Assembly (NCBI GenBank): GCA_947245665.1
Contig: CAMXOP010000002.1
Span: 1 to 45,372, forward strand
From: an uncultured Clostridiaceae bacterium
GTDB lineage: Bacteria > Bacillota > Clostridia > TANB77 > CAG-508
Direction: 5' to 3'
Length of the DNA: 45,372 nucleotides
Both the position numbers and the translations under genes were made by a program. The notes under the pieces are model-generated. The model was not told the origin of the DNA. It saw only the letters and a list, made by a program, of their open reading frames with translations, and ran no database searches. This document shows, in pieces, positions 1-32,941 of this stretch (its first letter is position 1; each line of letters opens with the position of its first letter).

Positions 1-1443
1 ATATTTTACTTTATCAATATCTAATTCATTCTTATATAATGTTATTTCTTTAAATTGATCGAAATTCCAATTATTTGGCATCTTTTGTCCGACGTTACAT
101 GAATATCCATATGACATATCTGCCACAAAGCTACTTATTGCATATCCTTTTTCAGATACTCTTTGGCAAACTAATCTTGGACCATATATACCAACTTTAT
201 ATCTTGAACCTATGAAATTATTTATTCCCTTAAAATATGGAATTATATATCTATCAATTTGATCTTCATATACATCTAAATCAACTGCAAAATAAATTAC
301 TGTTCCTTTTGGTAATTTTTCTTGTAATGCAGCATTAACTGCATTAATTGCTGCATTATTTCCTTTTTCTAATGTAAAATCATTTATATTACGATTACTT
401 TCTTGATATATTACAAAAGCTTTTAATCCATTATCTAATATAGTCTGTAATTCTCCTACTTGTAATTTTTTAGGTTTTTCTTCACTTATATATCCTGTTA
501 AATATCTTCCTACAACCTCAAACCCATCTTCTTTTAACATTTTTGCTCTACTTTTTGTTATTTCGAAACAAGTATCGCAGGCATTTGCACTTCTTGAAGT
601 ATCTCCACAACTTATAGCTAATGCTGACCATGTTTGTTTTCCACAATATCCATCAGCATCCAAACACATTAATGATTGGAAACCTTCAACAGCTTTTTTC
701 ACACCATTTCCATATCCACCATCAAAACCATTTGGGTCAAATCCATTTACATATAACAAATATTGTAATAGATATATCATACTTTTGTTGCTACTACCTG
801 GTAAAAGTGTTGGGCAGTTATTCATTGTATTACTTCCCCAAACTCCATCGGCACTTACATTTATTTCTACCTGTATAGCAATTATTAATGCTTTATTAGT
901 TTGCCTTTCATATATTCCATTTGTAGTTATATATGTATCGAAATAATTTCCATATTTATTGTTTAAGTCTCTTTGTATTGTTCTAATATTCGAATCACCA
1001 GATAATATTAATGTAAATGCATCTGTAGTTAAAATTGAAGCTAATATTTTAGCATCTACTATTCCATTTTGATTACTTAGTCCTATTTGTTCTTGTAATG
1101 TTTTAACTGCGGTCTTAGTTCCTTCTGTAAATACGTTTGAAAAAGATTGTGGTTCTATACCTCTACAATAAAATCCACCATTAATAATATAATTAATATT
1201 AGCATTTTGATTTTGAGTTTCTATAGATAAACCATTTGGAAACATACTGTTAAATAAATTCATCGTGCCTACTCCTAAGATTCCATCCATACTTGTTCCT
1301 AATTCATGTTGTAACCCTCTTATTAATCCTGCAACTGTTCCTCCACCTGTATATCCATCTTCATCTAAATTAACCCAACCTGAAATTGTTCCATATGTAT
1401 TATTTAACCATCTTTGTACTTCTCTAACTGCTTCATCTGCCAT
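1..1443 (-). CDS. Cell-wall hydrolase-like protein (peptidoglycan-binding repeats + DUF1906/Rv2525c-type glycoside-hydrolase-like domain); 3' end lies outside the window
   Basis: Absent from the ORF track (no stop in window). My translation of the minus strand from ATG 1443-1441 stays open to base 1: MADEAVREVQRWLNNTYGTISGWVNLDEDGYTGGGTVAGLIRGLQHELG... It has several PG_binding_1-like units (DGxxG..T..A...FQ), then ...CDTCFEITKSRAKMLKEDGFEVVGRYLTG...VIYFAVDLDVYEDQ...VGIYGPRLVC. It sits directly upstream of a holin gene. Confidence 0.6.
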   Translation of the reverse strand, partial: MADEAVREVQRWLNNTYGTISGWVNLDEDGYTGGGTVAGLIRGLQHELGTSMDGILGVGTMNLFNSMFPNGLSIETQNQNANINYIINGGFYCRGIEPQSFSNVFTEGTKTAVKTLQEQIGLSNQNGIVDAKILASILTTDAFTLILSGDSNIRTIQRDLNNKYGNYFDTYITTNGIYERQTNKALIIAIQVEINVSADGVWGSNTMNNCPTLLPGSSNKSMIYLLQYLLYVNGFDPNGFDGGYGNGVKKAVEGFQSLMCLDADGYCGKQTWSALAISCGDTSRSANACDTCFEITKSRAKMLKEDGFEVVGRYLTGYISEEKPKKLQVGELQTILDNGLKAFVIYQESNRNINDFTLEKGNNAAINAVNAALQEKLPKGTVIYFAVDLDVYEDQIDRYIIPYFKGINNFIGSRYKVGIYGPRLVCQRVSEKGYAISSFVADMSYGYSCNVGQKMPNNWNFDQFKEITLYKNELDIDKVKY

Positions 1444-1532: not shown

Positions 1533-2024
1533 TTATTTGTTAGCTTTTTCATTTTCTTTTTCTATATTATTCTCAACTACTCTTGTAAACTTCTTTTCAG
1601 TAATTTCCAATCCTTTTATCAGAAAATCAGGTACGTTTATTCCTAATTCTACCAAGTTTTCTATAATGCTTCTTGCTTCATTTATTGATAAGCATCCTAA
1701 TGTAAACCATCCAAAAAACATTACAAATTCTATATTTACATTAAATTTATTACATATTTCTATTACAATATAAGATATAATAAATGTAGTTACTATAATT
1801 AGCCAATAACATACTTTTTTCAATATTCCTTTTACTCCTTCTTTTGAGCTTTCTGTTTTCTTCTTTTTTGCCTTTATTACACCTGTTATATAGTCTATAA
1901 CATTTAATATTAAGTACGCTGCAAATAATCCTCCCTGTATTCCGAATACTGATGTCAAAAATGTTATTGTAACAGAAACAAACGAATTAATCTTACTAAA
2001 TATCTGAATAATTAAATCTCTCAT
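1533..2024 (-). CDS. Holin, phage_holin_4 / TcdE-like family (163 aa)
   Basis: Three or four hydrophobic segments. Family-typical motifs: VIDYITGVIKA...S.EGVKGILKK, and C-terminal INEARSIIENLVELGINVPDFL. Strong RBS (GGAGG) before the ATG. Adjacent to the hydrolase-like gene. Confidence 0.7.
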   Translation of the reverse strand: MRDLIIQIFSKINSFVSVTITFLTSVFGIQGGLFAAYLILNVIDYITGVIKAKKKKTESSKEGVKGILKKVCYWLIIVTTFIISYIVIEICNKFNVNIEFVMFFGWFTLGCLSINEARSIIENLVELGINVPDFLIKGLEITEKKFTRVVENNIEKENEKANK

Positions 2025-2223: not shown

Positions 2224-2748
2224 ATGGGAGGAGTATTAACAGAATTTATGATTCAAAAAGGAGGTAATGCGTCTATCAAAAATAGACGTACTGGTGCAAC
2301 ACTTGGTACTCTATATAATAGAGAAGCATGCCTATATTACTATGATGATGGAGATGGAACTCTTGGTTATTTAGCTTCTGATGGTTCATTTAAAGAATAT
2401 GTACAAGCTAATATGGGTCTACTTAATTTAAAACTTTGTACTGATTATCCTTATGCAGTTGAAAATATTAATGGTGTACCATATTACATATTTAAGATTA
2501 GAAAAGCATCTACTGTTTATAATGCACTTGGTGAAGTATGGGGTTCTGTAGCTGCTGGAATGTATGTAGCAACTACTAATGCTGAAATGGGTCAAACACA
2601 TAAGACTTGGAAAGAAATAAACTATGTAAAAAGTACTAGTGGACAATGGGTTCCTATAAATAGTGCTGGAAAAAGTCATGGATATGTACCTACAGGTATA
2701 GAAACTGCATCTGGCTACCAAAATATTTCTTTTTATGGTTCTTGGTAA
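2224..2748 (+). CDS. Hypothetical 174-aa Gly/Tyr-rich protein with no signal peptide or TM segment
   Basis: Clean ORF with RBS AAAGGAGAG 7 nt before the ATG and a perfect terminator hairpin downstream. I recognised no family. Confidence 0.5.
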   Translation: MGGVLTEFMIQKGGNASIKNRRTGATLGTLYNREACLYYYDDGDGTLGYLASDGSFKEYVQANMGLLNLKLCTDYPYAVENINGVPYYIFKIRKASTVYNALGEVWGSVAAGMYVATTNAEMGQTHKTWKEINYVKSTSGQWVPINSAGKSHGYVPTGIETASGYQNISFYGSW

Positions 2749-2827: not shown

Positions 2828-3856
2828 TTATTTTATAAGACTTGATTTTCCAAAAAAAGTATGTACTCCTCCCCAGTCTGCTGGTGAAAGTTCTAAGTGA
2901 ACTGGTGTATTTATTATCCAATAATCATAATCATGTAATATTTCATGAGCTTCAAAACATTTTTCCAAATTATGTTCGTTCATTCCCTCTTTTAAGGTAT
3001 CATATGTGTTTTGTAAATCTTTCTTTGTTTCTTTATCTTTTATTTCATTTTTAATTTTTTCTAATTTTTCTAGCACATATAAAAATCTTCCACCGTTATC
3101 TACTTTAGTACCTGTAAATGGATCCGTAAATACTCCATAACTTGTAAAATCTTCCCAGTATGGACTATTTTTATCTTTTACTAATCTTACTGCATCTAAA
3201 AGTTCATTTTCTAATCTTGAATGAATATCTCTAATATTTTTTTGAATATCTTGTTTTTTTTCTTCTGATAATCCTGATAAGGCTTTTTCTTGCGCTTTGT
3301 AACATTTTTCTTGCGTTGGCAATTCTAGATCACTTTTATGTAAGTAATATTTCTGTTCTGTAAATGTTAGTATTTCTTGATATATTTTTTCACTAATATG
3401 GTATGTCTTTTTTATATCCTTTGTCTGTATGCATACTATTCCTGCACCACTATTTATACCTCCTACTCCTTGCATTTTAAAAATACATTCAAAATCTCCA
3501 ATTAATTTAATTTCCCAATAAGCTCCATCAAAATTGCTAATTTGTGTTTTATCTTTTTCTTCCCAGATTGTATCAAAAAATAAGTTAATAAATTCTTCCA
3601 TTTTGTTTTTTTCATTTATTTTATAAATTGTTGGATTTGTGCTATCTGACATATTGTTTGTTAATATTATTTCTTTTATATTTTTAGGTATATATTCAGA
3701 AATTTCATTTGTTTTTGAAATAGATAAATTTTCTTCTTTTATCTTATCTACACTATCTATACTAGTTTCTTTTGGTTTATCTATCATTACTTTTGTAATT
3801 ATTATTCCAACTAAAATTAATAATATTATTAGTATTATTATAAAAACTTTTTTCAT
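2828..3856 (-). CDS. Membrane-anchored hypothetical protein (342 aa)
   Basis: N-terminal hydrophobic anchor MKKVFIIILIILLILVGIIITKV. Only 21 nt downstream of the Spo0A-like gene, so probably co-transcribed with it. No family recognised. Confidence 0.55.
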   Translation of the reverse strand: MKKVFIIILIILLILVGIIITKVMIDKPKETSIDSVDKIKEENLSISKTNEISEYIPKNIKEIILTNNMSDSTNPTIYKINEKNKMEEFINLFFDTIWEEKDKTQISNFDGAYWEIKLIGDFECIFKMQGVGGINSGAGIVCIQTKDIKKTYHISEKIYQEILTFTEQKYYLHKSDLELPTQEKCYKAQEKALSGLSEEKKQDIQKNIRDIHSRLENELLDAVRLVKDKNSPYWEDFTSYGVFTDPFTGTKVDNGGRFLYVLEKLEKIKNEIKDKETKKDLQNTYDTLKEGMNEHNLEKCFEAHEILHDYDYWIINTPVHLELSPADWGGVHTFFGKSSLIK

Positions 3857-3877
3857 TTAATTATCCCTCCTTTATAT

Positions 3878-4615
3878 TTAATTTTCAGAAATATTCTTTA
3901 GAACTGTATATATAACATTCTTTACAGTCGGCTTCGTTTTATCTTGAAAACCAAAATATTCTTGTATTCGCTCCCTTTTGCACATTTTGAACATATATTC
4001 ATTTGCTTTATTAATATTACTTTTTATATTATACACACCTAAGTTATTCTCTTTAGCTATGGTTGGATATATTTCTTCTGCCAAGTTGTATATTATGTGT
4101 TTTTTCCCTCCTTTGTTATATATTAATTGTATGGCATCTATAAGATATTGTGTTCCTGTGTGTGATAGATTGTAATTCAAATAATGTAGTTCTTTTATAA
4201 TACTCATTCTTATGCTTTCTTCTTTACTTTGCTCTTGTTTACTTTTGATTAATTCATTAATTTTATCTATTATGTCTGAAATAGAACTAACTTTATTGAT
4301 AAAACTATATACATAATCGCTTTCTCTTAATTTACAAATCATATCTGTTTCACCAGACACAACTATAATAGAATCTTTATATTTCCCCATTTTTTCTTTT
4401 TCTATTTCTTCTAGTATGTATAATCCATCATATATGGGCATCTTTAAATCAAGTAATATTATATCAACTGAATGATTCTTAATTATATCTAAAGCTTCTT
4501 GTCCATCTGTTGCAATATAGCTAACTTTCATATCCTCGCTATTACTTCCATTTATTATATTCATTAATACTTTTGCATAATATATGTTATCATCTGCTAT
4601 TAATATATTTACCAT
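3878..4615 (-). CDS. Spo0A-like orphan response regulator (receiver + Spo0A_C-like effector domain)
   Basis: Receiver motifs ILIADDN and ILLDLKMP (phospho-acceptor Asp). The C-terminal half parallels Spo0A_C: HTGTQYLIDAIQLIY..., IYPTIAKENN..., KPTVKNVIYTV (compare Spo0A HIKGYLYLREAISMVY, LYPDIAKKFN, KPTNSEFIAMV). Confidence 0.7.
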   Translation of the reverse strand: MVNILIADDNIYYAKVLMNIINGSNSEDMKVSYIATDGQEALDIIKNHSVDIILLDLKMPIYDGLYILEEIEKEKMGKYKDSIIVVSGETDMICKLRESDYVYSFINKVSSISDIIDKINELIKSKQEQSKEESIRMSIIKELHYLNYNLSHTGTQYLIDAIQLIYNKGGKKHIIYNLAEEIYPTIAKENNLGVYNIKSNINKANEYMFKMCKRERIQEYFGFQDKTKPTVKNVIYTVLKNISEN

Positions 4616-4653
4616 TTATACCACCTCTTACTATATTAGATACTTTAAGTTTG

Positions 4654-4666
4654 TAAAATAGTTTCA
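4654..4666 (-). promoter_or_regulatory. ECF-type -35-like element TGAAACTATTTTA upstream of the Spo0A-like gene
   Basis: On the minus strand, TGAAAC starts 51 nt upstream of ATG 4615. An identical 13-mer is found upstream of the ECF sigma gene (7288-7300). Confidence 0.4.
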
Positions 4667-4680
4667 TTTTTTTATTTTTT

Positions 4681-4770
4681 TTACTTTTATATTTACTTTT
4701 TCCACTTTTTTCTACTTTTTCACGCTTAATTATGCCCATAATCACTTTTTTTTACATTTTTTTCCACTTT
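4681..4770. repeat. Helically phased direct repeats (Y-Y-A-C-T-T-T-T-T; includes 2x TTTTTCCACTTT) between divergent promoters
   Basis: The AC cores sit at 4683, 4695, 4704, 4714, 4744, 4754 and 4766, with spacings of 9-12 bp or multiples. The related array is at 8951-8992. Confidence 0.5.
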
Positions 4771-4772
4771 GC

Positions 4773-4801
4773 TTGCATTAAATAAATTATTATGCTATAA
4801 T
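4773..4801 (+). promoter_or_regulatory. SigA-type promoter for the 4884 gene
   Basis: -35 TTGCAT (4773-4778), 17-nt spacer, extended -10 TGCTATAAT (4793-4801). Confidence 0.6.
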
Positions 4802-4883
4802 CTGATTTGTAGTTTATTTTTAGAGGGAGAATATAAATATATGTAACCCGTTAACCTTTTTTTATAATAAGGAGGAAATTTTT

Positions 4884-5489
4884 ATGAATATTTTGAAAAA
4901 AACAAAGAAACGGAACTTTTTGATTGCAGCTTTGGTTGGGGTATTATTTTTAACCCCTAATACAATTTGTCATGCTGCTTCTGGTAATGAAATTCAAGAA
5001 GCGAGTGAAGACACTATTGATGTTGTTCCAATTGAAGATGTTGGTATTTCTCATGAAGAAGCTATTGAAATTTTTGGACTTACTGAAGAAGAAGCTGAAG
5101 GGGTATCATTCTATTCAGTACGAAATGCAGGTTCAATTGATGTAGGCAAACCTTTCAATTCTACTTTTTCATTTACTGGTACAAATACTGGTGCATATCG
5201 CACGATGAATGGTAATAAACTTATGTACAAAATAACTTGGACACCTCTATCTGGCGATGGCGGAGAAGTATTAAGATTTTACTTATATCCATATGGAGGT
5301 AATGCCATTTCACAGGGATACCTATCTTTAGGATCTCCTGGCTCTGGGAATAGTCGAAGTTGGCAGTCTTCATGGTTAAATATTCAATATGGACTTGACT
5401 ATCATTTTTACTACGAGTCCTACATTGGATGGGTAGAAAATTCTCAAGCAAGATGCCAAGTGCAGATGTATATTGCTGTAGAAAATTAA
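4884..5489 (+). CDS. Secreted hypothetical protein (201 aa, Sec signal peptide)
   Basis: N-terminal MNILKKTKKRNFLIAALVGVLFLTPNTICHA/ASG signal. RBS AAGGAGG. The C-terminal half is beta-rich. No family recognised. Confidence 0.65.
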   Translation: MNILKKTKKRNFLIAALVGVLFLTPNTICHAASGNEIQEASEDTIDVVPIEDVGISHEEAIEIFGLTEEEAEGVSFYSVRNAGSIDVGKPFNSTFSFTGTNTGAYRTMNGNKLMYKITWTPLSGDGGEVLRFYLYPYGGNAISQGYLSLGSPGSGNSRSWQSSWLNIQYGLDYHFYYESYIGWVENSQARCQVQMYIAVEN

Positions 5490-5521
5490 AGTAGTTTTTG
5501 TTATTTTTCTCCTTCTAAAAT

Positions 5522-5546
5522 AAGGTCATAGCATTGCTATGACCTT
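5522..5546. terminator. Bidirectional terminator hairpin
   Basis: AAGGTCATAGC-ATT-GCTATGACCTT, a perfect 11-bp stem followed by TTATTT. It overlaps the stop codon of the convergent anti-sigma gene. Confidence 0.7.
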
Positions 5547-6709
5547 TTATTTAATACTATAGTAATTTCTTTATTATTCATAAACAATTTTAAAGTAAGT
5601 TTATCAGTTAGTTCTTTATTAGTAATTTCAAATATACATTTTTTTGTTATCTCTCCAGTAGCAGTATCCCATATGCTTTCTTGTTCTTTTACTGGTGAAA
5701 CACCAAATTTATGTCCAAATTCATTCTCAATAATAATATTATCAATCAGGGTATCTTCTGGACCTATTGAACTTATAATTTCTTCTATTTTATCTTTTCT
5801 ATCTTTTTCTTTAATTTTATATTCTGTTTTTATTTTTAGATTGACTATCATTTCAGATTCACTAGCAGTAGCATTTTCTACTATTACTTTACTGTTGTTA
5901 TTTTTATATGTTGCATTGTAAAATACTGTATCTCTTTTATAAAATTCTTTAAGTAAATCAACTTTTATATTCCATTTGTCATTTTTATCTATATTATAAT
6001 TATTATTTCTATTGTAAAAATGAAATCCTTCAAAGTCAAAATTCAGTTTTTCTGATTTTGGATATTCTGTTGAATACATTTTATATATAAATCTAATATT
6101 ATTTTCTGTTTTGCTTAATATCTCTATTCCATGTCCACTATTAGTGTATGAATTGTTCATATTTTTTTCACTATATTCAATATTATTTTCTCCACAATAT
6201 TTTTCATATATCTCCTTATTATCACAAAAAATTATATTTTTATTTTCATCTGTTATTATCATTTTATTTATCTCAACTGCATCTATCTTATCTAGTATTT
6301 CTTCTGATTCAATATTGAAAGTTATATATAAATTAAAGTCATCCATTAAAATATTTTCAATTTTAAAGTTTATTCCATCTTTATTTATATATTCCATCTC
6401 TGTATTATATAAGTAGCCCTCTTCTGCTACTTTTATTATTCCTTCTCCTGTTGTTTCTGGATTAAATATACTATATATCCAATTATAAATATCTTTAGCA
6501 AATACAGCACTTAATGTTATAACAAGTCCTGCAAATAGAGTTACAATTGTTTTTATAATAGCTATGAAAAAAGTGCTTAATTCAAATTTCTTTTTATTGT
6601 CAAATGCTGTTAATATTGCTTGTTCATATCCATAAGGTTCATATATTTTATTTTTAATTGTTTTTTCAATCATTATATCTAAATTATCCAACTTGTTTTC
6701 CTCCTTCAT
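5537..6709 (-). CDS. Putative anti-sigma factor (single-pass membrane protein with a large extracytoplasmic domain, DUF4179-like organisation)
   Basis: Overlaps the 3' end of the ECF sigma gene by 26 nt. It has a short cytoplasmic N-terminus, a TM segment (FFIAIIKTIVTLFAGLVITLSAVF), then about 320 aa outside the cell. Confidence 0.5.
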   Translation of the reverse strand: MKEENKLDNLDIMIEKTIKNKIYEPYGYEQAILTAFDNKKKFELSTFFIAIIKTIVTLFAGLVITLSAVFAKDIYNWIYSIFNPETTGEGIIKVAEEGYLYNTEMEYINKDGINFKIENILMDDFNLYITFNIESEEILDKIDAVEINKMIITDENKNIIFCDNKEIYEKYCGENNIEYSEKNMNNSYTNSGHGIEILSKTENNIRFIYKMYSTEYPKSEKLNFDFEGFHFYNRNNNYNIDKNDKWNIKVDLLKEFYKRDTVFYNATYKNNNSKVIVENATASESEMIVNLKIKTEYKIKEKDRKDKIEEIISSIGPEDTLIDNIIIENEFGHKFGVSPVKEQESIWDTATGEITKKCIFEITNKELTDKLTLKLFMNNKEITIVLNKRS

Positions 6710-7253
6710 ATTTATTCTTTATTTTCTCTTTTGCTCTTGAGAGCCTTGTTTTTATAGTATTTTCATTTATTTTTAAGATGTTAGATATTTCTTTTGTAGT
6801 GTATTTTTCTGAATAGTACAATATAATAATTATTCTTTCTTCATATTTTAATTCTTTTATCATTTCATAAAAATCTAATGTATCTTCTTTTAACTTTATG
6901 TCTTCACAACTTTTGATTTCATCTTTGTAAAATTCAATATCATAATTGTCATATACTTCCTTGCTATTTATTTTCTTATTATATAATTTATTAGAGTTAT
7001 TTATTAGTATTTTTATAATCCATGATTTAAATTTAGTAATATCTTTTAATTTTCGTATATGCCTATATGCATCTATCATTGTTTCTTGAATAATGTCTTG
7101 TATATCATCTTCATTAGTAGTTCTCATTTTTGCTATTTTGTATAAGTCATTTCTTATATTTAATATAATTTGTGTAAATGCTTCCTTATCTCCTTTCTTT
7201 GCTTTTATTATTAGTTCTTCCAATTTTAATTCCCCCTTTACTAATATGTACAT
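6684..7253 (-). CDS. ECF (group 4) RNA polymerase sigma factor
   Basis: Region 2: DDIQDIIQETMIDAYRHIRKLKD..FKSWIIKILIN. Region 4: ERIIIILYYSEKYTTKEISNILKINENTIKTRLSRAKEKIK. An alternative TTG start at 7223 follows a GGGGGA RBS. Confidence 0.8.
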   Translation of the reverse strand: MYILVKGELKLEELIIKAKKGDKEAFTQIILNIRNDLYKIAKMRTTNEDDIQDIIQETMIDAYRHIRKLKDITKFKSWIIKILINNSNKLYNKKINSKEVYDNYDIEFYKDEIKSCEDIKLKEDTLDFYEMIKELKYEERIIIILYYSEKYTTKEISNILKINENTIKTRLSRAKEKIKNKYEGGKQVG

Positions 7254-7287
7254 ATTTGTTGTCTACTTATAAGAGTATATTTTCTTA

Positions 7288-7300
7288 TAAAATAGTTTCA
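7288..7300 (-). promoter_or_regulatory. ECF-type -35-like element TGAAACTATTTTA upstream of the sigma gene (possible autoregulated promoter)
   Basis: TGAAAC starts 47 nt upstream of ATG 7253. The same 13-mer is at 4654-4666. No CGT-type -10 is visible. Confidence 0.4.
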
Positions 7301-7427
7301 CTTTTTATAAATTTCGAAAAATCTTTATATACTATAACATATATAAATACTAATTGGTGGTTTTCGACAGGCTTTTACAAATTTTTACATCTATTTTTGC
7401 TATAATAAATAAAAAGGGGATGATTTT

Positions 7428-7595
7428 ATGGATTCAAAAATTTCATTACAGCTCTTAAAAGAAAGAGCAAAACTTGAAAAACTTATTCTTGAAAAAGCAC
7501 CCTATGAAATAATTTGTAAAAAAAGTCAAGAACTTGATAACTTAGTACTGATAAAGTTTAAAGCTCTAAATAAAAAATATGAAAGTTCTAGTTAA
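7428..7595 (+). CDS. Spo0E-like aspartyl-phosphate phosphatase candidate (55 aa)
   Basis: Below the ORF-track size cut-off. My translation: MDSKISLQLLKERAKLEKLILEKAPYEIICKKSQELDNLVLIKFKALNKKYESSS. It carries the Spo0E-family signature SQELDxL(I/V). RBS AAGGGGA; extended -10 TGCTATAAT at 7398-7406. Confidence 0.6.
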   Translation: MDSKISLQLLKERAKLEKLILEKAPYEIICKKSQELDNLVLIKFKALNKKYESSS

Positions 7596-7709
7596 TCTAT
7601 CTTTAAAGTACCAAACTATAATAAAATTGATTATAAATTCTGAATGATGGCTTTTCGATTTATAAAAATTCTACTCTATATTTAATTTTGATATTTTTCT
7701 TTATATTTA

Positions 7710-7738
7710 TTGACTTTATTTCTTATTTTTGATAAATT
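7710..7738 (+). promoter_or_regulatory. SigA-type promoter for the HU gene
   Basis: -35 TTGACT (7710-7715), 17-nt spacer, TG-extended -10 TGATAAATT (7730-7738). Confidence 0.55.
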
Positions 7739-7786
7739 GGCGTTAATACAAAAGATATAAAATAATATCAAAAGGGGTGAATTATA

Positions 7787-8062
7787 ATGAATAAAATTGA
7801 ATTAGTAAACGCTATTTCTGAAAAAACTATGCTAACAAAAAAAGTTGCTGAATTATCTTTAAATGCTATAATAGAAACTATATCTGAAGAATTAAAAAAA
7901 GGTAATAAAATTCAACTTATTGGATTTGGTTCTTTCGAAGTAAGAAAAAGAGCAGCTAGAAAAGGTAGAAATCCTCAAACTAACGAAGAAATTACAATTC
8001 CTGCAACAATAGCTCCAGCTTTTAAACCAGGAAAAGCTTTAAAAGATAATATTAATAAATAA
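7787..8062 (+). CDS. hup: HU-family DNA-binding protein
   Basis: MNKIELVNAISEK...IQLIGFGSFEVRKRAARKGRNPQTNEEITIPA...PAFKPGKALKD is the canonical HU/IHF fold signature. RBS AAAGGGGTGA. Confidence 0.9.
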   Translation: MNKIELVNAISEKTMLTKKVAELSLNAIIETISEELKKGNKIQLIGFGSFEVRKRAARKGRNPQTNEEITIPATIAPAFKPGKALKDNINK

Positions 8063-8119
8063 AAATAAAAGCCAAACATGATTATATAAAACTATAATTC
8101 ATATTTGGTTTTATTTTTT
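8063..8119. terminator. Bidirectional terminator between hup and the AbrB-like gene
   Basis: Long imperfect hairpin, CCAAACATGATTATA (8072-8086) / TATAATTCATATTTGG (8094-8108). It has an A-run before it and TTTTATTTTTT after it. Confidence 0.55.
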
Positions 8120-8414
8120 AAAAACTTTCTTTAATATCTTTTATGCACTTTTTACATATCATTTTTTCCTTAAATTCATATAATACCTTTTTTTTATTAC
8201 AAAAACTGCATACTGTATCAATATTTTCTATAATAATTTTATCTCCTTCTACATATATTTGCAATGGAGTTCCTTGAAATATTCTTTTTTCATCTCGTAC
8301 TTCTTTTGGTATAGTAATTCTTCCAAGATCATCTACTTTTCTAGTAATTCCTGTATTTCCCATGTATTGCTTGTAATTTTCATTTTTACTTTTCATTTTG
8401 TTTTTTACTTTCAT
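8118..8414 (-). CDS. AbrB/SpoVT-family transition-state regulator with a C-terminal CxxC...CxxC zinc-ribbon tail
   Basis: ITRKVDDLGRITIPKEVRDEKRIFQGTPLQIYVEGDKIIIE matches the AbrB swapped-hairpin N-domain. The tail is CSFCNKKKVLYEFKEKMICKKC. Confidence 0.75.
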   Translation of the reverse strand: MKVKNKMKSKNENYKQYMGNTGITRKVDDLGRITIPKEVRDEKRIFQGTPLQIYVEGDKIIIENIDTVCSFCNKKKVLYEFKEKMICKKCIKDIKESF

Positions 8415-8558
8415 TTTTTTCCTTTCCTTTTTATATTTTAAAATTTATATTTTTCTTTTGGTTTGTTAGCTACATTCTAAAAGATGTGTAATAACATATT
8501 TTTCTTTTGAGTATAAAATGATATTATATAGTGCATATTAGTGAAAAAGGTGTTTATT

Positions 8559-8915
8559 ATGCAATTAAATGATGATGATGTTAAATTAATATTAAGTAAA
8601 AATATAAAATCAGCTAGAATAGCATCAAATTATACTCAAGAAGTGCTTGCAGAAAAGGCTAATTTATCTGTAAACTTTATAAAAGATATAGAAGCAAGTA
8701 GGTCTGGAGTTAGTTTAGCAACTTTAATAAATCTTTGCAAAGTTCTGAAAACATCTCCTAATCAACTTTTAAAAGATTTCTTTAAAGATTCTGTTAATAA
8801 CTCTGAAGATATTGTGCAACAGCTTAACTTTTTGAGTACTTTTGAAAGAAATGCTATTTTAACGCTAATTAATTATTTTAGCACAAATGATTTTAATAAT
8901 ATAGTATCTAACTAA
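8559..8915 (+). CDS. XRE-family HTH transcriptional regulator
   Basis: KNIKSARIASNYTQEVLAEKANLSVNFIKDIEASRSGVSLATLINLCKVL. I prefer ATG 8559 (RBS AAGGTG) over the track's GTG at 8541. Confidence 0.7.
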   Translation: MQLNDDDVKLILSKNIKSARIASNYTQEVLAEKANLSVNFIKDIEASRSGVSLATLINLCKVLKTSPNQLLKDFFKDSVNNSEDIVQQLNFLSTFERNAILTLINYFSTNDFNNIVSN

Positions 8916-8950
8916 TCTATTTATATATAGGTTAGTTTTTTTATATTTTT

Positions 8951-8992
8951 TAGGTACTTTTCAGTTACTTTTTTCCACTTTTTTCCACTTTT
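8951..8992. repeat. Four 10-11-bp phased direct repeats (GGTACTTTTC / GTTACTTTTTT / CCACTTTTTT / CCACTTTTG)
   Basis: The AC cores sit at 8956, 8967, 8977 and 8987. It contains 2x TTTTCCACTTTT, the same core as the 4681-4770 array. It lies upstream of the XRE gene at 9124. Confidence 0.5.
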
Positions 8993-9123
8993 GTTATCTT
9001 ACCATATAAAAAATGTAAATACAAGATATAATAATAAAATTGTTTATTAAATTTCCTTTTTGATTATTTCATTTCCTTTTAAATTATATTTTATTTTGCT
9101 ATTTTATAAGAGGTGATTGAAAA

Positions 9124-9471
9124 ATGAAGAAGTCAAATATAGAAATAGGTAAAAATTTAAAAAGTGCTAGAATAGCTGCTGGATATACTCAAGAAGAAGT
9201 AGCTGAAAAAATAGATCGTTCTGATAGACATATTGGACAATTAGAAACAAATCGAACTTTAGGAAGTGTTGATTTATTACTTGAGCTTTGCAATATTTAT
9301 AATATTACTCTAAATGATATTTTTAGCGATTATCTAAAGTTTGATTTTGATAAAGATAATAAGAACATTCCTACTATTATCGGTTATCATCAATTAAACG
9401 AAGAATATCGTTCTATTGTTGATAATCTTATCCAACATTTAAATATTCTACAAAGAAATAAAAATAAATAA
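9124..9471 (+). CDS. XRE-family HTH transcriptional regulator (paralogue of 8559-8915)
   Basis: KNLKSARIAAGYTQEEVAEKIDRSDRHIGQLETNRTLGSVDLLLELCNIY. RBS AGAGGTGA. Confidence 0.75.
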   Translation: MKKSNIEIGKNLKSARIAAGYTQEEVAEKIDRSDRHIGQLETNRTLGSVDLLLELCNIYNITLNDIFSDYLKFDFDKDNKNIPTIIGYHQLNEEYRSIVDNLIQHLNILQRNKNK

Positions 9472-11958: not shown

Positions 11959-12017
11959 TTATTTTCCTTCTTTCTTTTTACATTTTTTATGGAGCAGCCT
12001 ATTGGCCACTCCATATT

Positions 12018-12158
12018 TTAAGCTACTTTTTTAAGTTTTACTTTTCTTTCTTGTTTTTTATTAAAAATATCTAACTTTTTAACATATTCAAGACTTTTTC
12101 TTAATGCTTTTAAATCTTCATCTGACATATAATAACTTTTATTTTTATTTTTATTCAT
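12018..12158 (-). CDS. Possible small ORF (46 aa, Lys-rich)
   Basis: My translation: MNKNKNKSYYMSDEDLKALRKSLEYVKKLDIFNKKQERKVKLKKVA. An RBS-like GAGGTGAAAAAAG sits upstream. It fills the gap left after extending the upstream gene. Confidence 0.3.
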   Translation of the reverse strand: MNKNKNKSYYMSDEDLKALRKSLEYVKKLDIFNKKQERKVKLKKVA

Positions 12159-12174
12159 CTTTTTTCACCTCTTA

Positions 12175-13267
12175 TTATGCAGTATTTAATACAAACTCAT
12201 CATTTTCTTTGTCAAATATTTCTTCTAAACTACTTGGAATCTCACAGTCTTTTATTGATATGTTTAACCTCACTCTATCTTCTCCATATTTTTTTATTAG
12301 ACTAGATAATAGGTTTTCCGAAGTATGAAGTATTGTGTGTGAATCCATTACTACATATACATTATTAATATTTCTTATACTATCTAATTTTCTAGCTTCA
12401 ATCTTTGAGATTACATTAGGAACTCCGAATTACTATGTTTTCTTTATATGTATTAGCAATTTTATAAGCAAGTACCATCTCTGAAGCAACTATAATATCT
12501 CTTTTTTCTTTTAAATTATTCATAAGCTGTATTTTATTATCTTCTGGAAATAAAATCATAATATTGTTATCTGCTTTTGTTCCCTCGTTTTCTTGACTAC
12601 TGCTAAACCAAATATCACTAGTATCTATACTATACATTGTATCTAAATGAATTCTTAAAGCTACAATTTTACAATTATCTAGTACAGGAATAAATATTCC
12701 TTTGTGTGATTTAAAATTCCATCTAAACTTTTTATCTTTAAAAAAACCTGGTGTTCCATTAAAATCAATTCCTTCTGTTTGTAGTTTTCTACATATTTCT
12801 ATTTTTTGATTTTCTTGTGTTGGTATTGTTTTAAATCCTATTTTTTCGATTTGTTCCATTGAAAAACCACATTTTAAGAGTTTCATTGTATGCTCTGAGC
12901 TAAGAGATAATTTTTCTAAAAAAGCTTGATAAGCAATATCTAACTCTTCCTTATTTTTTCTTACATTTGTAATAATTGAAGTCATCAAGTTGTTGCTTAT
13001 ATCAGCTTCATTATTAATTAATCTTTGATATGCTTCTCTGTTTGAGATATACTTATTTTTTGCATATAATCCTATTGAATATCCTCTAGCTTCACATTTT
13101 TTGCAAATATAGCTATTATTACTTATATTTAATCTCATAGTTCCTTTCTCTGAACAAAATGGACATTTTACATATATTATATCTTTTTTAGAATAAATCT
13201 CTTTTAGCCCTAGTTTGTTTTTTACATTTATAATGCTAGTTCTATTCAAAATTTCCTGTTGATTCAA
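12175..13267 (-). CDS. Primase-like protein (CHC2-type zinc finger + Toprim-like C-terminal region); frame broken by an extra base at 12427
   Basis: Zinc-finger motif CPFCSEKGTMRLNISNNSYICKKCEARG. Removing the C of the CGG at 12427 extends ...KENIVIGVPNVISKIEARKLDSIRNINNVYVVMDSHT... to stop 12177-12175. The length minus 1 is 1092 nt. Confidence 0.5.
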
Positions 13268-13268
13268 T

Positions 13269-13538
13269 TTATTTTTCCACCTTTACTATTAGTTTCATAC
13301 CAGTTCTTTCTTCACCATCAAGTTCTACTTTCGTAAAGGATGGAACACATACTATATCAATTCCTGTTGGTGTTAAAAATCCTCTTGCAATTACAATTGC
13401 CTTTATTGCTTGGTTTATTGACCCTGCACCGATAGCTCTTAGTTCTGACTTTCCTCTTTCATTTATTTGACCAGCTATTGCTCCTGCAATAGCATTTGGA
13501 TTTGATTTTGCTGATATTTTTAAAATTTCTTCGTTCAT
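13269..13538 (-). CDS. spoVS: SpoVS (stage V sporulation protein S) homologue
   Basis: ILKISAKSNPNAIAGAIAGQINERGKSELRAIGAGSINQAIKAIVIARGFLTPTGIDIVCVPSF..ELDGEERTGMKLIV is near-collinear with B. subtilis SpoVS. Confidence 0.85.
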   Translation of the reverse strand: MNEEILKISAKSNPNAIAGAIAGQINERGKSELRAIGAGSINQAIKAIVIARGFLTPTGIDIVCVPSFTKVELDGEERTGMKLIVKVEK

Positions 13539-14304: not shown

Positions 14305-15183
14305 TTATGCACTTATTTTCTCTTGTTTATATTTGCTATTTTTTATTAATTCTATAAATTCATCTGCTGTTTCTTTAATTTTGTTAGATAAGCTCATAAA
14401 TTCCTTTATATTATTTTCTGCCCAACTAGTTATATATCCAAAACTACAAAGTGATGTATCAAATCCAAAGTGGTCAGCAACTAAAAATGCTACACTTTCA
14501 ACAAATATTTCACTTTTATTTCTTTCTGTCTTATATGCAAAATCATCATATAAGCAATGACAAAGTTCATGTATTAACACTGATGTTTTATCATCTTGTG
14601 ATAAACTTTCTTTTAATATAATTTTTTTATTTACTTTATCATAATATCCCTTTCCCATACCATTAATTTCTTCTGTTATTATTGGTACTGGAGATATTTC
14701 TAACAAAATATCATACAATTCTTTTGTAGTATCGTCTTCTAGTACATCATCTAATATTGGAATTCTTTTATCAGCTTTCTTTATATAGGTATCTCCTATG
14801 TCATATACAGCAACTCTTTTATATGAAATTCCTTCAATGATTTCTATTGTCCCACTATTATTTCGTTCTTTTTCTTCTTTCCCATTTACATTTTGTTGCC
14901 CTTCTATTGCCTTTTGTTTTTTATATTTTACTGGTCTGTAAATGAAAATAGTTTTAGGATTCTTTTTTACACCTCTTCCTAGTTTGTTCCAATCACAAAA
15001 GCCTTTTACAATTGTTGCATTTGGATTTTGTACATATACTAGTATTGTATTCCTAAAACTGTAATTGTTTTTTATTTTATTTACCATACTTAAAAATTTG
15101 GGATAATCTCCTCGCTTTATAATTTTTTTTACACCTTCTAATAATTTAGTATAATTTACTTTATTCTTAGGCATATTTTTCAC
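14305..15183 (-). CDS. ArdC-like antirestriction protein (ssDNA-binding DUF1738-like N-domain + HExxH zincin domain)
   Basis: N-domain YSFRNTILVYVQNPNATIVKGFCDWNKLGRGVKKNPKTIFIYRP. C-domain VLIHELCHCLYDDF (HExxH). Confidence 0.7.
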   Translation of the reverse strand: MKNMPKNKVNYTKLLEGVKKIIKRGDYPKFLSMVNKIKNNYSFRNTILVYVQNPNATIVKGFCDWNKLGRGVKKNPKTIFIYRPVKYKKQKAIEGQQNVNGKEEKERNNSGTIEIIEGISYKRVAVYDIGDTYIKKADKRIPILDDVLEDDTTKELYDILLEISPVPIITEEINGMGKGYYDKVNKKIILKESLSQDDKTSVLIHELCHCLYDDFAYKTERNKSEIFVESVAFLVADHFGFDTSLCSFGYITSWAENNIKEFMSLSNKIKETADEFIELIKNSKYKQEKISA

Positions 15184-15884
15184 CTCTTTTTATTATTCTT
15201 TAAATCTAATCTCATTTTTTCTCTATTATCTTTCAATTTTTCATTCCAATTTTTTAAATAATGTCTTATTGTATATAATTCTATACATACTTTATCTCGA
15301 TTTTTATTTAGTAATACTATTCTACCTGGAATATCATAAAGTGTTAGTTGTATATATGTTATATACGCACATATAATATCAGTTTCTTCTGCATATGCAT
15401 ACATTTTTTCCTTATAGTCTATTCCTTTTTCTTTTAAATATTTTGCTACACCTAATAACATTACTCCATTAGAACATTCTGCATCATAAATAGTTGTAAA
15501 TTCTCTATTTCTTATTTCTTCTAAATTTAGACTAGAAGCCATAACTCTTGCAATACTCATTGGTGTAAAATATCTATTGTCTAGTAATCTATAATTTCCT
15601 CCTACAGCTTCAAATATTTCTCCTAAAATATCTGATATTTCATTTTCTTCATACAATGAAACTATTTTATGCATTATTATTTTAAGTGTATTTAATTCTG
15701 ATTTTTCATATTTTTCCATAATCTTCTTATATTTATTTGTTGCGGTACGATCAAATGTATCGTTCATTAACAGTGTAAGTATAAATATAATATCTTTTAA
15801 TATATCTATATTTCGATATTTACCATTAGTAAATTCTAATAGTCCAATAATTTCTTTATATTCCATTTTGATATCTTCTTTCAT
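15180..15884 (-). CDS. Truncated HsdM/N6-methylase-like protein lacking catalytic motif IV
   Basis: RYFTPMSIARVM (motif X-like), IYDAECSNGVMLLG (degenerate motif I), YITYIQLTLYDIPG. The ORF ends without an NPPF/NPPY motif. It overlaps the ArdC-like gene by 4 nt. Confidence 0.55.
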   Translation of the reverse strand: MKEDIKMEYKEIIGLLEFTNGKYRNIDILKDIIFILTLLMNDTFDRTATNKYKKIMEKYEKSELNTLKIIMHKIVSLYEENEISDILGEIFEAVGGNYRLLDNRYFTPMSIARVMASSLNLEEIRNREFTTIYDAECSNGVMLLGVAKYLKEKGIDYKEKMYAYAEETDIICAYITYIQLTLYDIPGRIVLLNKNRDKVCIELYTIRHYLKNWNEKLKDNREKMRLDLKNNKKR

Positions 15885-15899
15885 GTATTTTCTCCTATA

Positions 15900-16592
15900 T
15901 TATTTTTTATAATTTATTTTTGTATTTTTTTGCATTTTTTCTTCCCATTTTCCTAAAAAAAACTCTGGTGTATAAAATATTCTTCTTGTTTGTAAACTTA
16001 GTGTATCTCCTCAAATAACTAGACCTGGCATACCGATATAATGATATTTGTATATATGTCATACAAAAACATATAAAATCAATATCTTGTCCCCAATAAA
16101 AAGCTTTTTTGTATATTCTATATTTTTATCCATTAAAACATTTCCAAAAGATAGTAATAGTATTCCACTACCGCAAGCACAATCATATATAACATCAAAT
16201 TCTTGTTTTTTCTTAGATAAATTATTTTGTGTTAATAATGCAGTAAGTATTCCTACTTCTTTTGGTGAAAAAAATTGCTTATTTCCTTTTTTTATTGCTC
16301 CTATTTGGTAATATATTTCTCCTAATACATCTTTTATTTTTGGCTCTTGCATATATAAATTTTGTAATTCGTCCTTTAATTTAGGAAAAATATCCAACTC
16401 ACATCTTTCATATTTTTTTATTGTCTTAAAATACATTTGTTCATCTATTTCTTCGTAATAGAATTTGTTTTTTATCGCAATTGCATATATGGTTACAAAG
16501 TCTTTAAATACATCTATTATGTCATATTTGCCATTACTAAAGTTTAATAGACTTACAAAATTTTTGTATTTTTTATTAATTCCTTGTTTCAT
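15900..16592 (-). pseudogene. Second truncated HsdM-like paralogue, multiply disrupted
   Basis: QFFSPKEVGILTALL and VIYDCACGSGILLLSFG (good motif I). The frame is lost in the C4/A5 run at 16091-16102. The other frame reads GQDIDFICFCMTYIQISLY, then there is an extra C at 16035 (restoring GMPGLVI), then an in-frame TGA (16013-16011), then GDTLSLQTRRIFYTPEFFLGKWEEK. The total of 693 nt is consistent with +1/-1 compensation. Confidence 0.5.
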
Positions 16593-16608
16593 TATTTTTC
16601 TCCAATCT

Positions 16609-16649
16609 AAAAAAATAAGAAGAAGATAAAATAAATATCTTCCTTCTTT
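16609..16649 (-). terminator. Rho-independent terminator after the 16698-17576 methyltransferase gene
   Basis: 13-bp stem with one mismatch, TAAGAAGAAGATA (16616-16628) / TATCTTCCTTCTTA (16636-16649). On the minus strand it is followed by T7 (plus-strand A-run 16609-16615). Confidence 0.6.
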
Positions 16650-16697
16650 ACTTTTTTATATCTTGTATCTTACTAATCTTATTGTTGCTTTTATTGT

Positions 16698-26938: not shown

Positions 26939-27183
26939 CTTTATTATTTAAAAGAGCAACTATTTTGTTGTTTCTTTTTTTAGCAATTTTATAATTATAA
27001 CTTTCAATATATTAATATCATAAATATTATAATTTTTCAATGAAAGTTACCAAAAGTGTACCTTTTTTTTAATAATTTACACTTTATTCTCCTTTATAGA
27101 ATAAAGTGCAATGTTTTTCTTTTAAAATGATTTTATTGATTTAAATACTTATGTAACAACACAACAATTTACATTCTGTTATA

Positions 27184-28301: not shown

Positions 28302-29137
28302 TTATAGTTTCCCTCCTTACAGTTTTTATAAGTGAACTATAAATTTTTCTTCTTTCTGGTATTATTTTTTTTACTTTCACAATAATCATATCCCCTGGAA
28401 GTGGTGGTATTTCTAGCCAAACAGGAAGTGTTGCCATAGTATCAACTCCTTGCTTTAATGAAGCAAAAACTCCGATTATCCGAGAATCCTGTTACTGTTG
28501 CTAAATACTCTCCACCTTCTGTAAAACTTTTTCTAATATTTATGTATGGGTCTTCCTTGGTATCTTTGTGGGATATTTTTAATGTTTGTTTTTCATTGTC
28601 TATTTCTTTTACTATTACTTTTATTTTGTCCCCTACTTGGTACAAATTGTTTAAATTTGATACATATCCATATTCTAAATCGGAAATCTTTAATTTTACA
28701 TCTATTCCTAAGCATTCTACTGTAATATATTTTGGTGACACGCTTATTATTTTTGCGTATATTAGATCTCCTTTTTCGTACTTTTTTAGCTGAATACCTT
28801 TTATCCTCTCCATTGCTTTTTTTCTAGATGCTACTGCTGTATTTGTTAGCTTATCTGATTCAATTATAATAAACTTTATTTCTGAACCTATTAAATTCCT
28901 TATTGTCTTTTTATCATCTTTTTCTATTCCTAGCTCTCTCCCTGGTATAAGAACCTTTATATTTTTAAAATTTACTACTATACAATTTATATTCTCTTCT
29001 TGTATTTTTCCATCTTCTTTTGTTAGTTTAACTCTTTCGCTTTCTATTGCAATTGCTTTTCCTGAAAGTATTTTATTTTTCTCTTCTGAAGTATTTATAT
29101 TCTGCCATGCAATTTGTTTTTCTAATTCTTCTATCAT
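28294..29137 (-). CDS. Multi-S1-domain RNA-binding protein; frame broken by an extra base at 28474
   Basis: S1-like units (GDLIYAKIISVSPKYITVECLGIDVKL; VGDKIKVIVKEID). Removing the C of the CGG at 28474 restores GEYLATVTGFSDNGVFASLKQGVDTMATLP...GDMIIVKVKKI, to stop 28296-28294. The length minus 1 is 843 nt. The start overlaps the T4CP stop (ATGA). Confidence 0.65.
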
Positions 29138-32677: not shown

Positions 32678-32941
32678 TTATTCTTCATTTTCTTCATCGT
32701 ATTTATTAGAAATCTCTTCTAGCATTTTCTCTCTAGTTTCATTATTAATTGGATATACAAAATTTCTTTTTATTCCTTTACCTCTTAATTTTCTTATTGG
32801 CATTAATATATATCTTCCTCTTGAATTTTCTAATAATTTTATACCATCTATAACGATACTATCTTCTACAAGTATACTTGCATAGCAAAGTAACTCCCCT
32901 CTATTAATTTTCTTAATTTTTATTTCACTAATTTTTAACAT
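32678..32941 (-). CDS. spoVG: SpoVG-family protein
   Basis: MLKISEIKIKKINRGELLCYASILVEDSIVIDGIKLLENSRGRYILMPIRK...FVYPINNETREKM parallels SpoVG. ATG 32941 follows AAGGAGGA. The track's 33028 start overlaps the adhesin gene and lacks an RBS. Confidence 0.75.
   Translation of the reverse strand: MLKISEIKIKKINRGELLCYASILVEDSIVIDGIKLLENSRGRYILMPIRKLRGKGIKRNFVYPINNETREKMLEEISNKYDEENEE

Follow-up and report, generated by a model that had tools for sequence, protein, structure and literature searches.

A Spo0A paralogue with a candidate operator of its own on a conjugative element of an uncultured Clostridiaceae bacterium

The enrichment of sporulation homologues on mobile elements is not new. Spo0A_C and SpoVG are enriched on mobile elements of gut Firmicutes (PMC6907783), receiver-less spo0A, abrB and spoVG are carried by gut phages (PMC10294663), and homologues of spo0E and abrB lie beside quorum-sensing systems of phages and plasmids (PMC10075063). 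ICEBs1 manipulates the development of its host (PMC8032392), and Spo0A paralogues have been noted in Clostridiales genomes with no function assigned (bioRxiv 10.1101/2022.02.25.481979). Here we analyse a 45.4-kb stretch of DNA from an uncultured Clostridiaceae bacterium (contig CAMXOP010000002.1, positions 1-45,372; below, the window), which by its gene content is a conjugative element of the Gram-positive type with a type IV secretion system (T4SS), and which carries at 3878-8414 an island of regulatory genes around a response regulator related to Spo0A. The island shares with the published cases the protein families, the bacterial groups and the idea that an element manipulates or senses sporulation. 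It differs from them in that the regulator is full length, with its receiver, and that a conjugative element links it to a Spo0E-like gene and to a sigma/anti-sigma pair of the extracytoplasmic function (ECF) type; moreover, it has a candidate operator and nameable local targets, an argument for a regulon of its own. In the literature we found no description of the full-length paralogue family, of its linkage to ECF, hydrolase, holin and secreted-protein genes, or of the candidate operator.

We favour, at about an even chance, the reading that the island is the element's own sensory and regulatory module, built around a Spo0A paralogue with a separate regulon, and not a duplicate of the host circuit. 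A sequence-only reading of the same DNA had described it as a shadow of the host Spo0A phosphorelay output. The genes listed in that reading all lie where it had placed them, and profile searches gave statistical support to each of its domain calls. The features of the island and its immediate flank, with lengths in amino acids (aa), are:

3878-4615, minus strand: orphan response regulator with a receiver (REC) and a Spo0A_C-type DNA-binding domain; Spo0A paralogue, not orthologue
4700-4718 (TTCCACTTTtTTCTACTTT) and 4752-4770 (TTACATTTTtTTCCACTTT), plus strand: tandem boxes, candidate operator, in the divergent region between the regulator and 201-aa genes
4884-5489, plus strand: 201-aa secreted protein with a signal peptide; predicted direct target of the regulator
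5537-6709, minus strand: 390-aa membrane anti-sigma candidate with one transmembrane segment and a DUF4179-type extracytoplasmic start
6684-7253, minus strand: ECF-type sigma factor with regions 2 and 4 only (TIGR02937, 79 bits, cutoff 42.9; Sigma70_r2, 40 bits; r4_2, 46 bits)
7363-7406, plus strand: promoter of the Spo0E-like gene with three 10-bp-phased units, TTCGACA (7363-7369), TTTTACA (7373-7379) and TTTTACA (7383-7389)
7428-7595, plus strand: 55-aa Spo0E-superfamily protein with an SQELD motif; candidate aspartyl-phosphate phosphatase
7787-8062, plus strand: HU-family nucleoid-associated protein (Bac_DNA_binding, 117 bits)
8118-8414, minus strand: AbrB/MazE/SpoVT-domain protein with a C-terminal CxxC...CxxC zinc-ribbon-like tail
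8541-8915 and 9124-9471, plus strand: two XRE-family helix-turn-helix regulators
8973-8991 (TTCCACTTTtTTCCACTTT), plus strand: second perfect tandem pair of boxes, upstream of the second XRE gene

A Spo0A paralogue and a Spo0E-like protein

Profile and structure comparisons make the regulator a relative of Spo0A in both of its halves: an old paralogue, and no copy of Spo0A. It matches Response_reg with 56.4 bits and Spo0A_C with 42.4 bits (cutoff 25), the latter over 102 of 104 profile positions. The best match of its receiver domain in the PDB is the receiver of Spo0A, and a profile of 46 family members finds 1FC3 and 1LQ1, structures of the Spo0A effector domain (E = 2-4e-9). The Spo0A equivalog model TIGR02875, however, is not reached (77.4 bits against a cutoff of 200), and identity to annotated spo0A genes is 26.6-28%; because of this low identity (~27%) and the missed cutoff we call the regulator a paralogue. 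Like Spo0A (TIGR02875; 1QMP, 1FC3, 1LQ1), it combines a REC domain having all the phospho-acceptor residues with a six-helix Spo0A_C domain, and the two proteins share the blocks GTxYL..AI, YP.IA and KPT.K. All 46 members have S87 and K108, and D8, D9 and D56 vary hardly at all among them. In the AlphaFold model (pLDDT 92) a long linker helix joins the REC domain to a C-domain of six helices; a Foldseek search with it was dominated by the receiver, and the effector domain got no separate score.

The sequence-only reading had reported a changed recognition helix in this effector domain. The change is real, although the alignment given there was one residue off: in a pairwise alignment Spo0A SRVERAIRHAIEVAW stands against YNIKSNINKANEYMF of the regulator, so that the Spo0A helix is not conserved. 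In its place stands (Y/H)NIKSNINKAN(E/D)YM(F/Y), and the 46 members show a signature of their own, NIKxNIxKA(T/N)xxMY. The family comprises at least 140 sequence clusters of 36-86% identity, mostly metagenomic and almost all with the REC plus Spo0A_C architecture. Its genome-resolved members all come from metagenome-assembled genomes of uncultured gut Clostridia, where they sit on chromosomes (some in spore-formers) as well as on mobile elements. In contrast to Spo0A they do not have neighbours of the spoIVB/recN type and often occur in two or three copies, and on mobile elements. Two paralogues, in tandem or close by, were seen in the related loci L007 (8928-10768), L003, L017 (12639-13358) and L082 (392-1081). 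A regulator gene of L082 (9018-9751) is broken into ORFs (open reading frames) of 186 and 51 aa and is probably a frameshift or a pseudogene.

No histidine kinase was found among the window ORFs scanned, those left unscanned all being of 158 aa or less. As no kinase is encoded on the element, a coupling to host sporulation through host kinases is possible.

A protein that could reset the regulator is encoded 2.8 kb from the regulator gene. The window copy of this 55-aa protein has no Pfam or NCBIfam match, and single-sequence searches against the PDB and plasmids gave nothing or noise. Two orthologues scored 19.9 and 20.1 bits against the SpoOE-like family PF09388 (cutoff 23), and a profile made from them and the window copy retrieved 157 small proteins, 118 of the 149 scanned being PF09388 members (best E = 4e-11). 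Only this profile route worked. With it and the SQELD motif we assign the protein to the Spo0E superfamily, as the sequence-only reading had proposed, and regard its phosphatase role as putative. The Spo0E/YisI/YnzD phosphatases (PF09388; 2C0S, 2BZB), a family that acts on phosphorylated Spo0A, are two-helix hairpins of ~50 aa with SQELD at the start of helix 2; likewise, the 55-aa protein is modelled as a two-helix hairpin (helices 3-21 and 26-53, pLDDT 87) and has the SQxLD signature, with the catalytic Asp of the family, at the start of helix 2, as SQELD at residues 33-37, with S33 and D37 nearly invariant (at least 90% conserved). Foldseek of the model against 2C0S gave a TMq of 0.82, which is not significant; the hairpin is compatible with that structure, not specific to it. 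The protein differs from PF09388 in belonging to a distinct subfamily with the consensus KNRxKLEKLI...Y.KILKQSQKLDKYI, the window copy lying below Pfam detection and the orthologues just under the cutoff; and, unlike that of Spo0E, its putative substrate may be the element's own regulator rather than Spo0A. The profile search also returned P0205, a 136-aa protein in which a Spo0E-like domain (residues 1-47, with SQELD) is joined to a complete SpoVS; a true fusion or a read-through of adjacent genes, it hints at Spo0E-like and SpoVS neighbours elsewhere.

The Spo0E-like gene holds the same position in L005, L079, L080, L082 and L083 and stays divergent to the ECF operon in three lineages; L079 has kept, of the Spo0E-like, HU and SpoVS genes, only the Spo0E-like one (protein 71% identical). 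The three phased units of its promoter are followed by an extended −10 element, TGcTATAAT (7398-7406). The first of them, TTCGACA, is the complement of a perfect 0A box, TGTCGAA, on the minus strand; this box is the only perfect one in the region and is retained in the diverged L079. It could just as well be a variant of the site that the paralogue uses.

Tandem boxes and conserved neighbours of the regulator

Spo0A binds tandem 0A boxes head to tail, with 10-bp phasing beside the −35 element (structure 1LQ1). The candidate operator of the paralogue is similar in design: 10-bp-phased, head-to-tail tandem boxes that abut sigma-A −35 elements, with the sequence TTCYACTTT instead of TGTCGAA. At 4700-4770 the proximal box ends 2 nt before a −35 element, TTGCAT (4773-4778), which is followed by a 17-nt spacer and TGcTATAAT (4793-4801). 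The TTTGT half of the 0A consensus TTTGTCGAA reappears in some variants of the box (TTTGTGACTT, TTTGTAACTT).

The tandem pattern occurs four times in the window against 0.22 expected, a count that none of 100 shuffles reached. Boxes with at most one mismatch lie near the regulator in L017, L026 and L001, where ~0.1 would be expected across all paralogue loci, and none occurs in 551 kb of control loci. The proximal box of each match outside the window borders on a −35 hexamer, and the gene that follows encodes a small protein bearing either a signal peptide or an N-terminal membrane anchor; in L026 the boxes are present even though the regulator is the sole gene in common with the window. Between the window and L080 the boxes of 4700-4770 are identical and their flanks carry substitutions and indels, and the boxes of 8973-8991 are likewise kept against diverged flanks in L080 and L083.

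A scan open to any tandem repeat of 10-bp period revealed variants, differing by lineage, at the regulator-gene boundary (TGTGACTTT, TGTAACTTT, TGTATCTTT, TTTACCTTT and GGTAACTT). A generalised pattern, defined after these hits had been seen, so that its statistics are partly post hoc, gave 20 clusters in 556 kb of paralogue loci, 9 of them within 300 bp of a regulator ORF (3.7% of the bases), and a single cluster, not near a regulator, in 504 kb of controls. The variants of the box roughly follow those of the recognition helix: NIKSNINK goes with TTCYACTTT, NIxR with TGTnACTTT, and NINN with TTTACCTTT.

The 0A box itself is not enriched across the window (TGTCGAA, 2 observed against 0.84 expected), and TGNCGAA is only marginally so (8 against 3.86), its extra sites lying within coding regions elsewhere. 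On L033, a scaffold of Clostridium sp. CAG:389, two copies of TTTGTCGAA form a perfect tandem with a 10-bp period at 6737-6757, ~2.9 kb upstream of a paralogue gene, which suggests a genuine Spo0A target nearby in a host with a working Spo0A.

We compared the gene context of 35 non-redundant loci carrying a member of the paralogue family. An ECF sigma and/or anti-sigma gene adjoins the regulator in ~20 of the 35, a linkage that lasts down to ~40% identity. Genes for hydrolases, holins or secreted proteins adjoin it in the window, L001, L003, L007, L076 and L080. These neighbours include CHAP/PG_binding proteins in L003, Amidase_6/ricin proteins in L007, SH3_3 proteins in L073-L075 and, in the chromosomal L076, an Amidase_6 protein beside the regulator, with SpoIVA, GerA and SpoVT in the neighbourhood. 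In L017 a signal peptidase I gene (11985-12635, minus strand) has two regulator paralogues on one side and two genes for small secreted proteins on the other, in line with the secretion theme of these loci. The full combination of seven genes was found only in the close relatives L005 and L080-L083, and partly in L079; L005 is nearly identical to the window, whose secreted protein has a counterpart of 86% identity in L080, L082 and L083.

The sigma factor of the island belongs to an ordinary ECF family: its best NCBIfam models are TIGR02954, SigY and SigV, and a TcdR/UviA-type sigma was therefore rejected. The adjacent membrane protein, whose gene overlaps that of the sigma by 26 nt, scores 26.9 bits against DUF4179, under the cutoff of 30.1; the two form the ECF sigma/anti-sigma pair that the sequence-only reading had described, and they occur together in many loci. 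A link to lysozyme sensing by sigV/RsiV through DUF4179 was considered and, with the match below the cutoff, is not claimed. A search by eye for an ECF-type promoter shared by the sigma and holin genes gave nothing convincing. The AbrB-like regulator of that reading does have the AbrB/MazE/SpoVT domain (PF04014, 35.5 bits; TIGR01439, 37 bits, cutoff 28.3). It shows neither an AbrB-type C-terminal multimerisation domain nor AbrB orthology: its C-terminal half is of the CxxC...CxxC kind with weak zinc-ribbon matches, and no model matches at the equivalog level (SpoVT, 40 bits against a cutoff of 236). Homologues of its gene are present in five loci (L005, L007, L017, L018 and L025). Regulators or nucleoid proteins of the HU, AbrB-domain and ECF types are generic.

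Accessory genes and the conjugative element

Beyond the regulator gene the window begins with a group of accessory genes:

1-1443, minus strand: N-terminal 481 aa of a cell-wall hydrolase with no signal peptide; the ORF passes the window edge
1533-2024, minus strand: TcdE-type holin (Phage_holin_4_1, 101.4 bits), directly upstream of the hydrolase
2224-2748, plus strand: 174-aa protein with no Pfam match, kept in L005, L006 and L080
2828-3856, minus strand: 342-aa protein with an N-terminal membrane anchor and no Pfam match, kept in L005, L006 and L080

The hydrolase has two PG_binding_1 repeats (98.9 bits) and an Rv2525c_GlyHyd-like domain (145.7 bits), and its full-length orthologues in L080 and L001 are of 751-773 aa. 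The holin-hydrolase pair recurs in L001, L009 and L080. The 342-aa gene starts 22 nt downstream of the regulator gene and is probably in one operon with it. The 201-aa secreted protein on the other side of the regulator is homologous to a 215-aa secreted protein of L001 (30% identity, E = 8e-7), whose gene lies behind tandem boxes and leads into holin-hydrolase genes. Between the convergent secreted-protein and anti-sigma genes of the window a hairpin with an 11-bp stem (AAGGTCATAGC...GCTATGACCTT, 5522-5546) is likely a bidirectional terminator.

Sigma factors next to such cassettes have been described in clostridia. UviA/UviB/BCN5 of pIP404 and TcdR/TcdE of the C. difficile PaLoc combine an alternative sigma with a TcdE-type holin and a signal-less exported protein. 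The window resembles these systems in having a sigma factor near a Phage_holin_4_1 holin and a large signal-less exported enzyme on a clostridial mobile element. Unlike them, it has an ordinary ECF sigma with a membrane anti-sigma, a peptidoglycan-binding glycoside hydrolase in place of a toxin or bacteriocin of known type, and, in addition, a response regulator.

The remaining features named here, several of them in the leading and transfer regions, include the type IV coupling protein (T4CP):

13269-13538, minus strand: SpoVS homologue, leading region (Pfam, 122.7 bits; no NCBIfam model match)
15180-15884 and 16059-16592, minus strand: two paralogous small ORFs with an N6_Mtase N-terminal match, leading region
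16698-17576, minus strand: N6_N4_Mtase-like ORF, leading region
24610-25506, minus strand: Gp3-like (recombination-directionality-factor-like) protein, in a window without an integrase
28442-29137, minus strand: S1 RNA-binding-domain protein, directly beside the coupling-protein genes and kept in five distant elements
29134-29724, minus strand: T4CP, ORF 2 (T4SS-DNA_transf positions 314-454 plus TraG-D_C), overlapping ORF 1
29609-30955, minus strand: T4CP, ORF 1 (T4SS-DNA_transf positions 2-314)
32678-32941, minus strand: diverged SpoVG homologue (Pfam, 64.7 bits; NCBIfam, 55 bits against an equivalog cutoff of 108)
40907-42067: VirB4/TraG-like ATPase

Nearly all genes of the window (~25% GC) are on the minus strand. 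The conjugative gene set comprises a VirB4-type ATPase, a coupling protein, a wall hydrolase, a T4SS pilin-like protein, a sortase and SpaA and TED surface adhesins, and ArdC and single-stranded DNA-binding protein (SSB) genes in the leading region; the window also encodes an M23 peptidase, DNA methyltransferases and the Gp3-like protein. The three methyltransferase-related ORFs at 15180-17576, beside ArdC, probably have an anti-restriction function. A search of the window for an integrase or a relaxase found neither; on the far side of the hydrolase gene the related L080 (1-279) has an IS110 transposase and a tyrosine recombinase of 292 aa. The window has no terminal overlap, and circularity is therefore not shown. 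A near-identity search of 3000-9000 against annotated plasmids and phages gave no match, and a scan of the AT-rich window for consensus promoters and terminators was uninformative (68 sites against 79 expected).

In five distant conjugative elements (L007, L015, L019, L027 and L046) the module lies between an ArdC/primase-like leading region and a transfer block made up of the S1-domain protein, T4CP genes, two unknown genes, SpoVG and the SpaA adhesin. The T4CP is split or fragmented in these five as it is in the window; the split may be natural, through two genes or a frameshift, and not an error of sequencing. SpoVG, between the T4CP genes and the SpaA adhesin, has the same place in all five, and its constant position marks it as a backbone gene of the transfer block in this element family. 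The SpoVS gene is kept only in the close relatives L080 and L083. The SpoVS and SpoVG homologues of the sequence-only reading are where it saw them, in the leading and transfer regions.

A module of the element or a branch of host sporulation

As we picture the module, a host histidine kinase would phosphorylate the regulator: the regulator must rely on a host enzyme since the element encodes no kinase, and an obvious choice would be the orphan sporulation kinases of Clostridia because the receiver is most like that of Spo0A. The adjacent Spo0E-type protein would remove the phosphate. The phosphorylated regulator would bind the tandem TTCYACTTT boxes next to the sigma-A −35 elements as a head-to-tail dimer or oligomer and switch on two genes, the divergent one for the 201-aa secreted protein and that of the second XRE regulator; its own gene and, as negative feedback, the Spo0E-like gene may be further targets. 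The co-inherited ECF sigma/anti-sigma pair would add an envelope-derived input. The predicted output is the accessory cassette, consisting of the 342-aa membrane protein, the TcdE-type holin and the signal-less, peptidoglycan-binding, muramidase-like hydrolase, and the expression state of the element itself, set through the XRE and AbrB-domain regulators, may be a further one.

Several findings weigh against this picture. The host of the element is not known to form spores. Strong boxes were found in only about 8-15 of the ~35 loci, the boxes are T-rich in a genome of 25% GC and the generalised pattern is post hoc, which makes them supportive rather than definitive; the covariation of helix and box comes from few, phylogenetically related cases. 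The predicted 201-aa target has only four database relatives. Beyond close relatives the regulator occurs without the Spo0E-like and HU genes. At the holin-hydrolase promoter there are only degenerate box-like repeats (about 2120-2150), upstream of, and facing, the opposite-strand 174-aa gene; because these are degenerate and wrongly oriented, only synteny ties the lysis cassette to the regulator.

The proposal of a host-circuit shadow stands in part. The domain identities, the Spo0A-like receiver, the nearby Spo0E-superfamily protein and the absence of a kinase speak for it. That the island copies the circuit does not fit the ~27% identity, the replaced helix, the candidate operator, the ECF and hydrolase neighbours and the generic nature of the HU, AbrB-domain and ECF proteins, and the seven genes, taken as a circuit, stay together only in close relatives.

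We consider it unlikely that the element hijacks sporulation, that is, acts on the level of phosphorylated host Spo0A (Spo0A~P) or on the 0A regulon and so delays, blocks or triggers sporulation or times transfer, for instance by a Spo0E-like protein that drains host Spo0A~P or a regulator that competes for kinases. Such a role would suit a Spo0E-superfamily protein with an intact SQELD, a receiver most similar to Spo0A receivers, an element without a kinase and the perfect 0A box in the Spo0E-like promoter, retained in L079; there are also precedents among mobile elements and phages (PMC8032392, PMC10075063, PMC10294663), and one family member lies in a genome with SpoIVA, GerA and SpoVT. However, the recognition helix is wholly replaced and a distinct operator goes with the family, which also occurs on chromosomes with local hydrolase and secreted-protein targets. 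The window-wide count of 0A boxes is not significant, SpoVG belongs to the transfer-block backbone, the HU, ECF and AbrB domains are generic, and the gene combination is not kept beyond close relatives.

A switch of conjugation, in which the regulator, the ECF pair, the AbrB-domain protein and the two XRE proteins time the transfer genes and the hydrolase and holin are cargo or remodel the wall during mating, seems rather improbable to us. If the island were such a switch, strong boxes might be looked for before the transfer genes; there are none, and the only other match in the window, at 27077, has 2 mismatches. The chromosomal L012, L013, L026 and L076, with no T4SS nearby, keep the arrangement of box and secreted-protein gene, and the T4SS block already has its own M23 peptidase. 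What recommends this switch is the place of the module exactly between the leading region and the transfer block on five distant elements, together with the tandem boxes upstream of the second XRE gene. Mobile elements, besides, commonly use repressors of the XRE and AbrB types as switches.

Very unlikely, finally, is a chance accumulation of small regulators with a sporulation theme that is an artefact of family names: HU, AbrB-domain, ECF, XRE, SpoVG and SpoVS proteins are indeed general nucleic-acid-binding or regulatory proteins, and the full combination is confined to near relatives, but the linkage of the regulator to ECF/anti-sigma genes at ~40% identity, the strong enrichment of regulator-proximal boxes and the Spo0E-like gene divergent to the ECF operon in three lineages all speak against chance.

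Within the reading that we prefer, that of an element-owned module, a bolder version can be formulated, to which we give little credence. The element would eavesdrop on sporulation: the kinases of Spo0A would phosphorylate the regulator, the element's own phosphatase would reset it, and, as sporulation sets in, a private operator would trigger the secreted protein, the release of a muramidase by way of the holin, and a re-setting of the XRE and AbrB-domain regulators. If true, the eavesdropped programme could lyse siblings or recipients, in a manner similar to cannibalism, or allow escape or transfer before the host becomes dormant.

Spo0A is usually taken to be a single-copy, sporulation-defining protein; full-length paralogues with an altered recognition helix are widespread in gut Clostridia. 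Matches to Spo0A_C on mobile elements should, with due caution, not be annotated as spo0A or as manipulation of sporulation. The candidate operator offers a testable regulon for genes that had so far been noted simply for the enrichment of their Pfam domains on gut mobile elements. Should kinases of host sporulation feed the regulator, mobile elements would tap a developmental signal and leave the host regulon untouched; and if the element eavesdrops as outlined above, this would be a parallel output of the sporulation phosphorelay that is owned by mobile elements and common to a large paralogue family of gut Clostridia.

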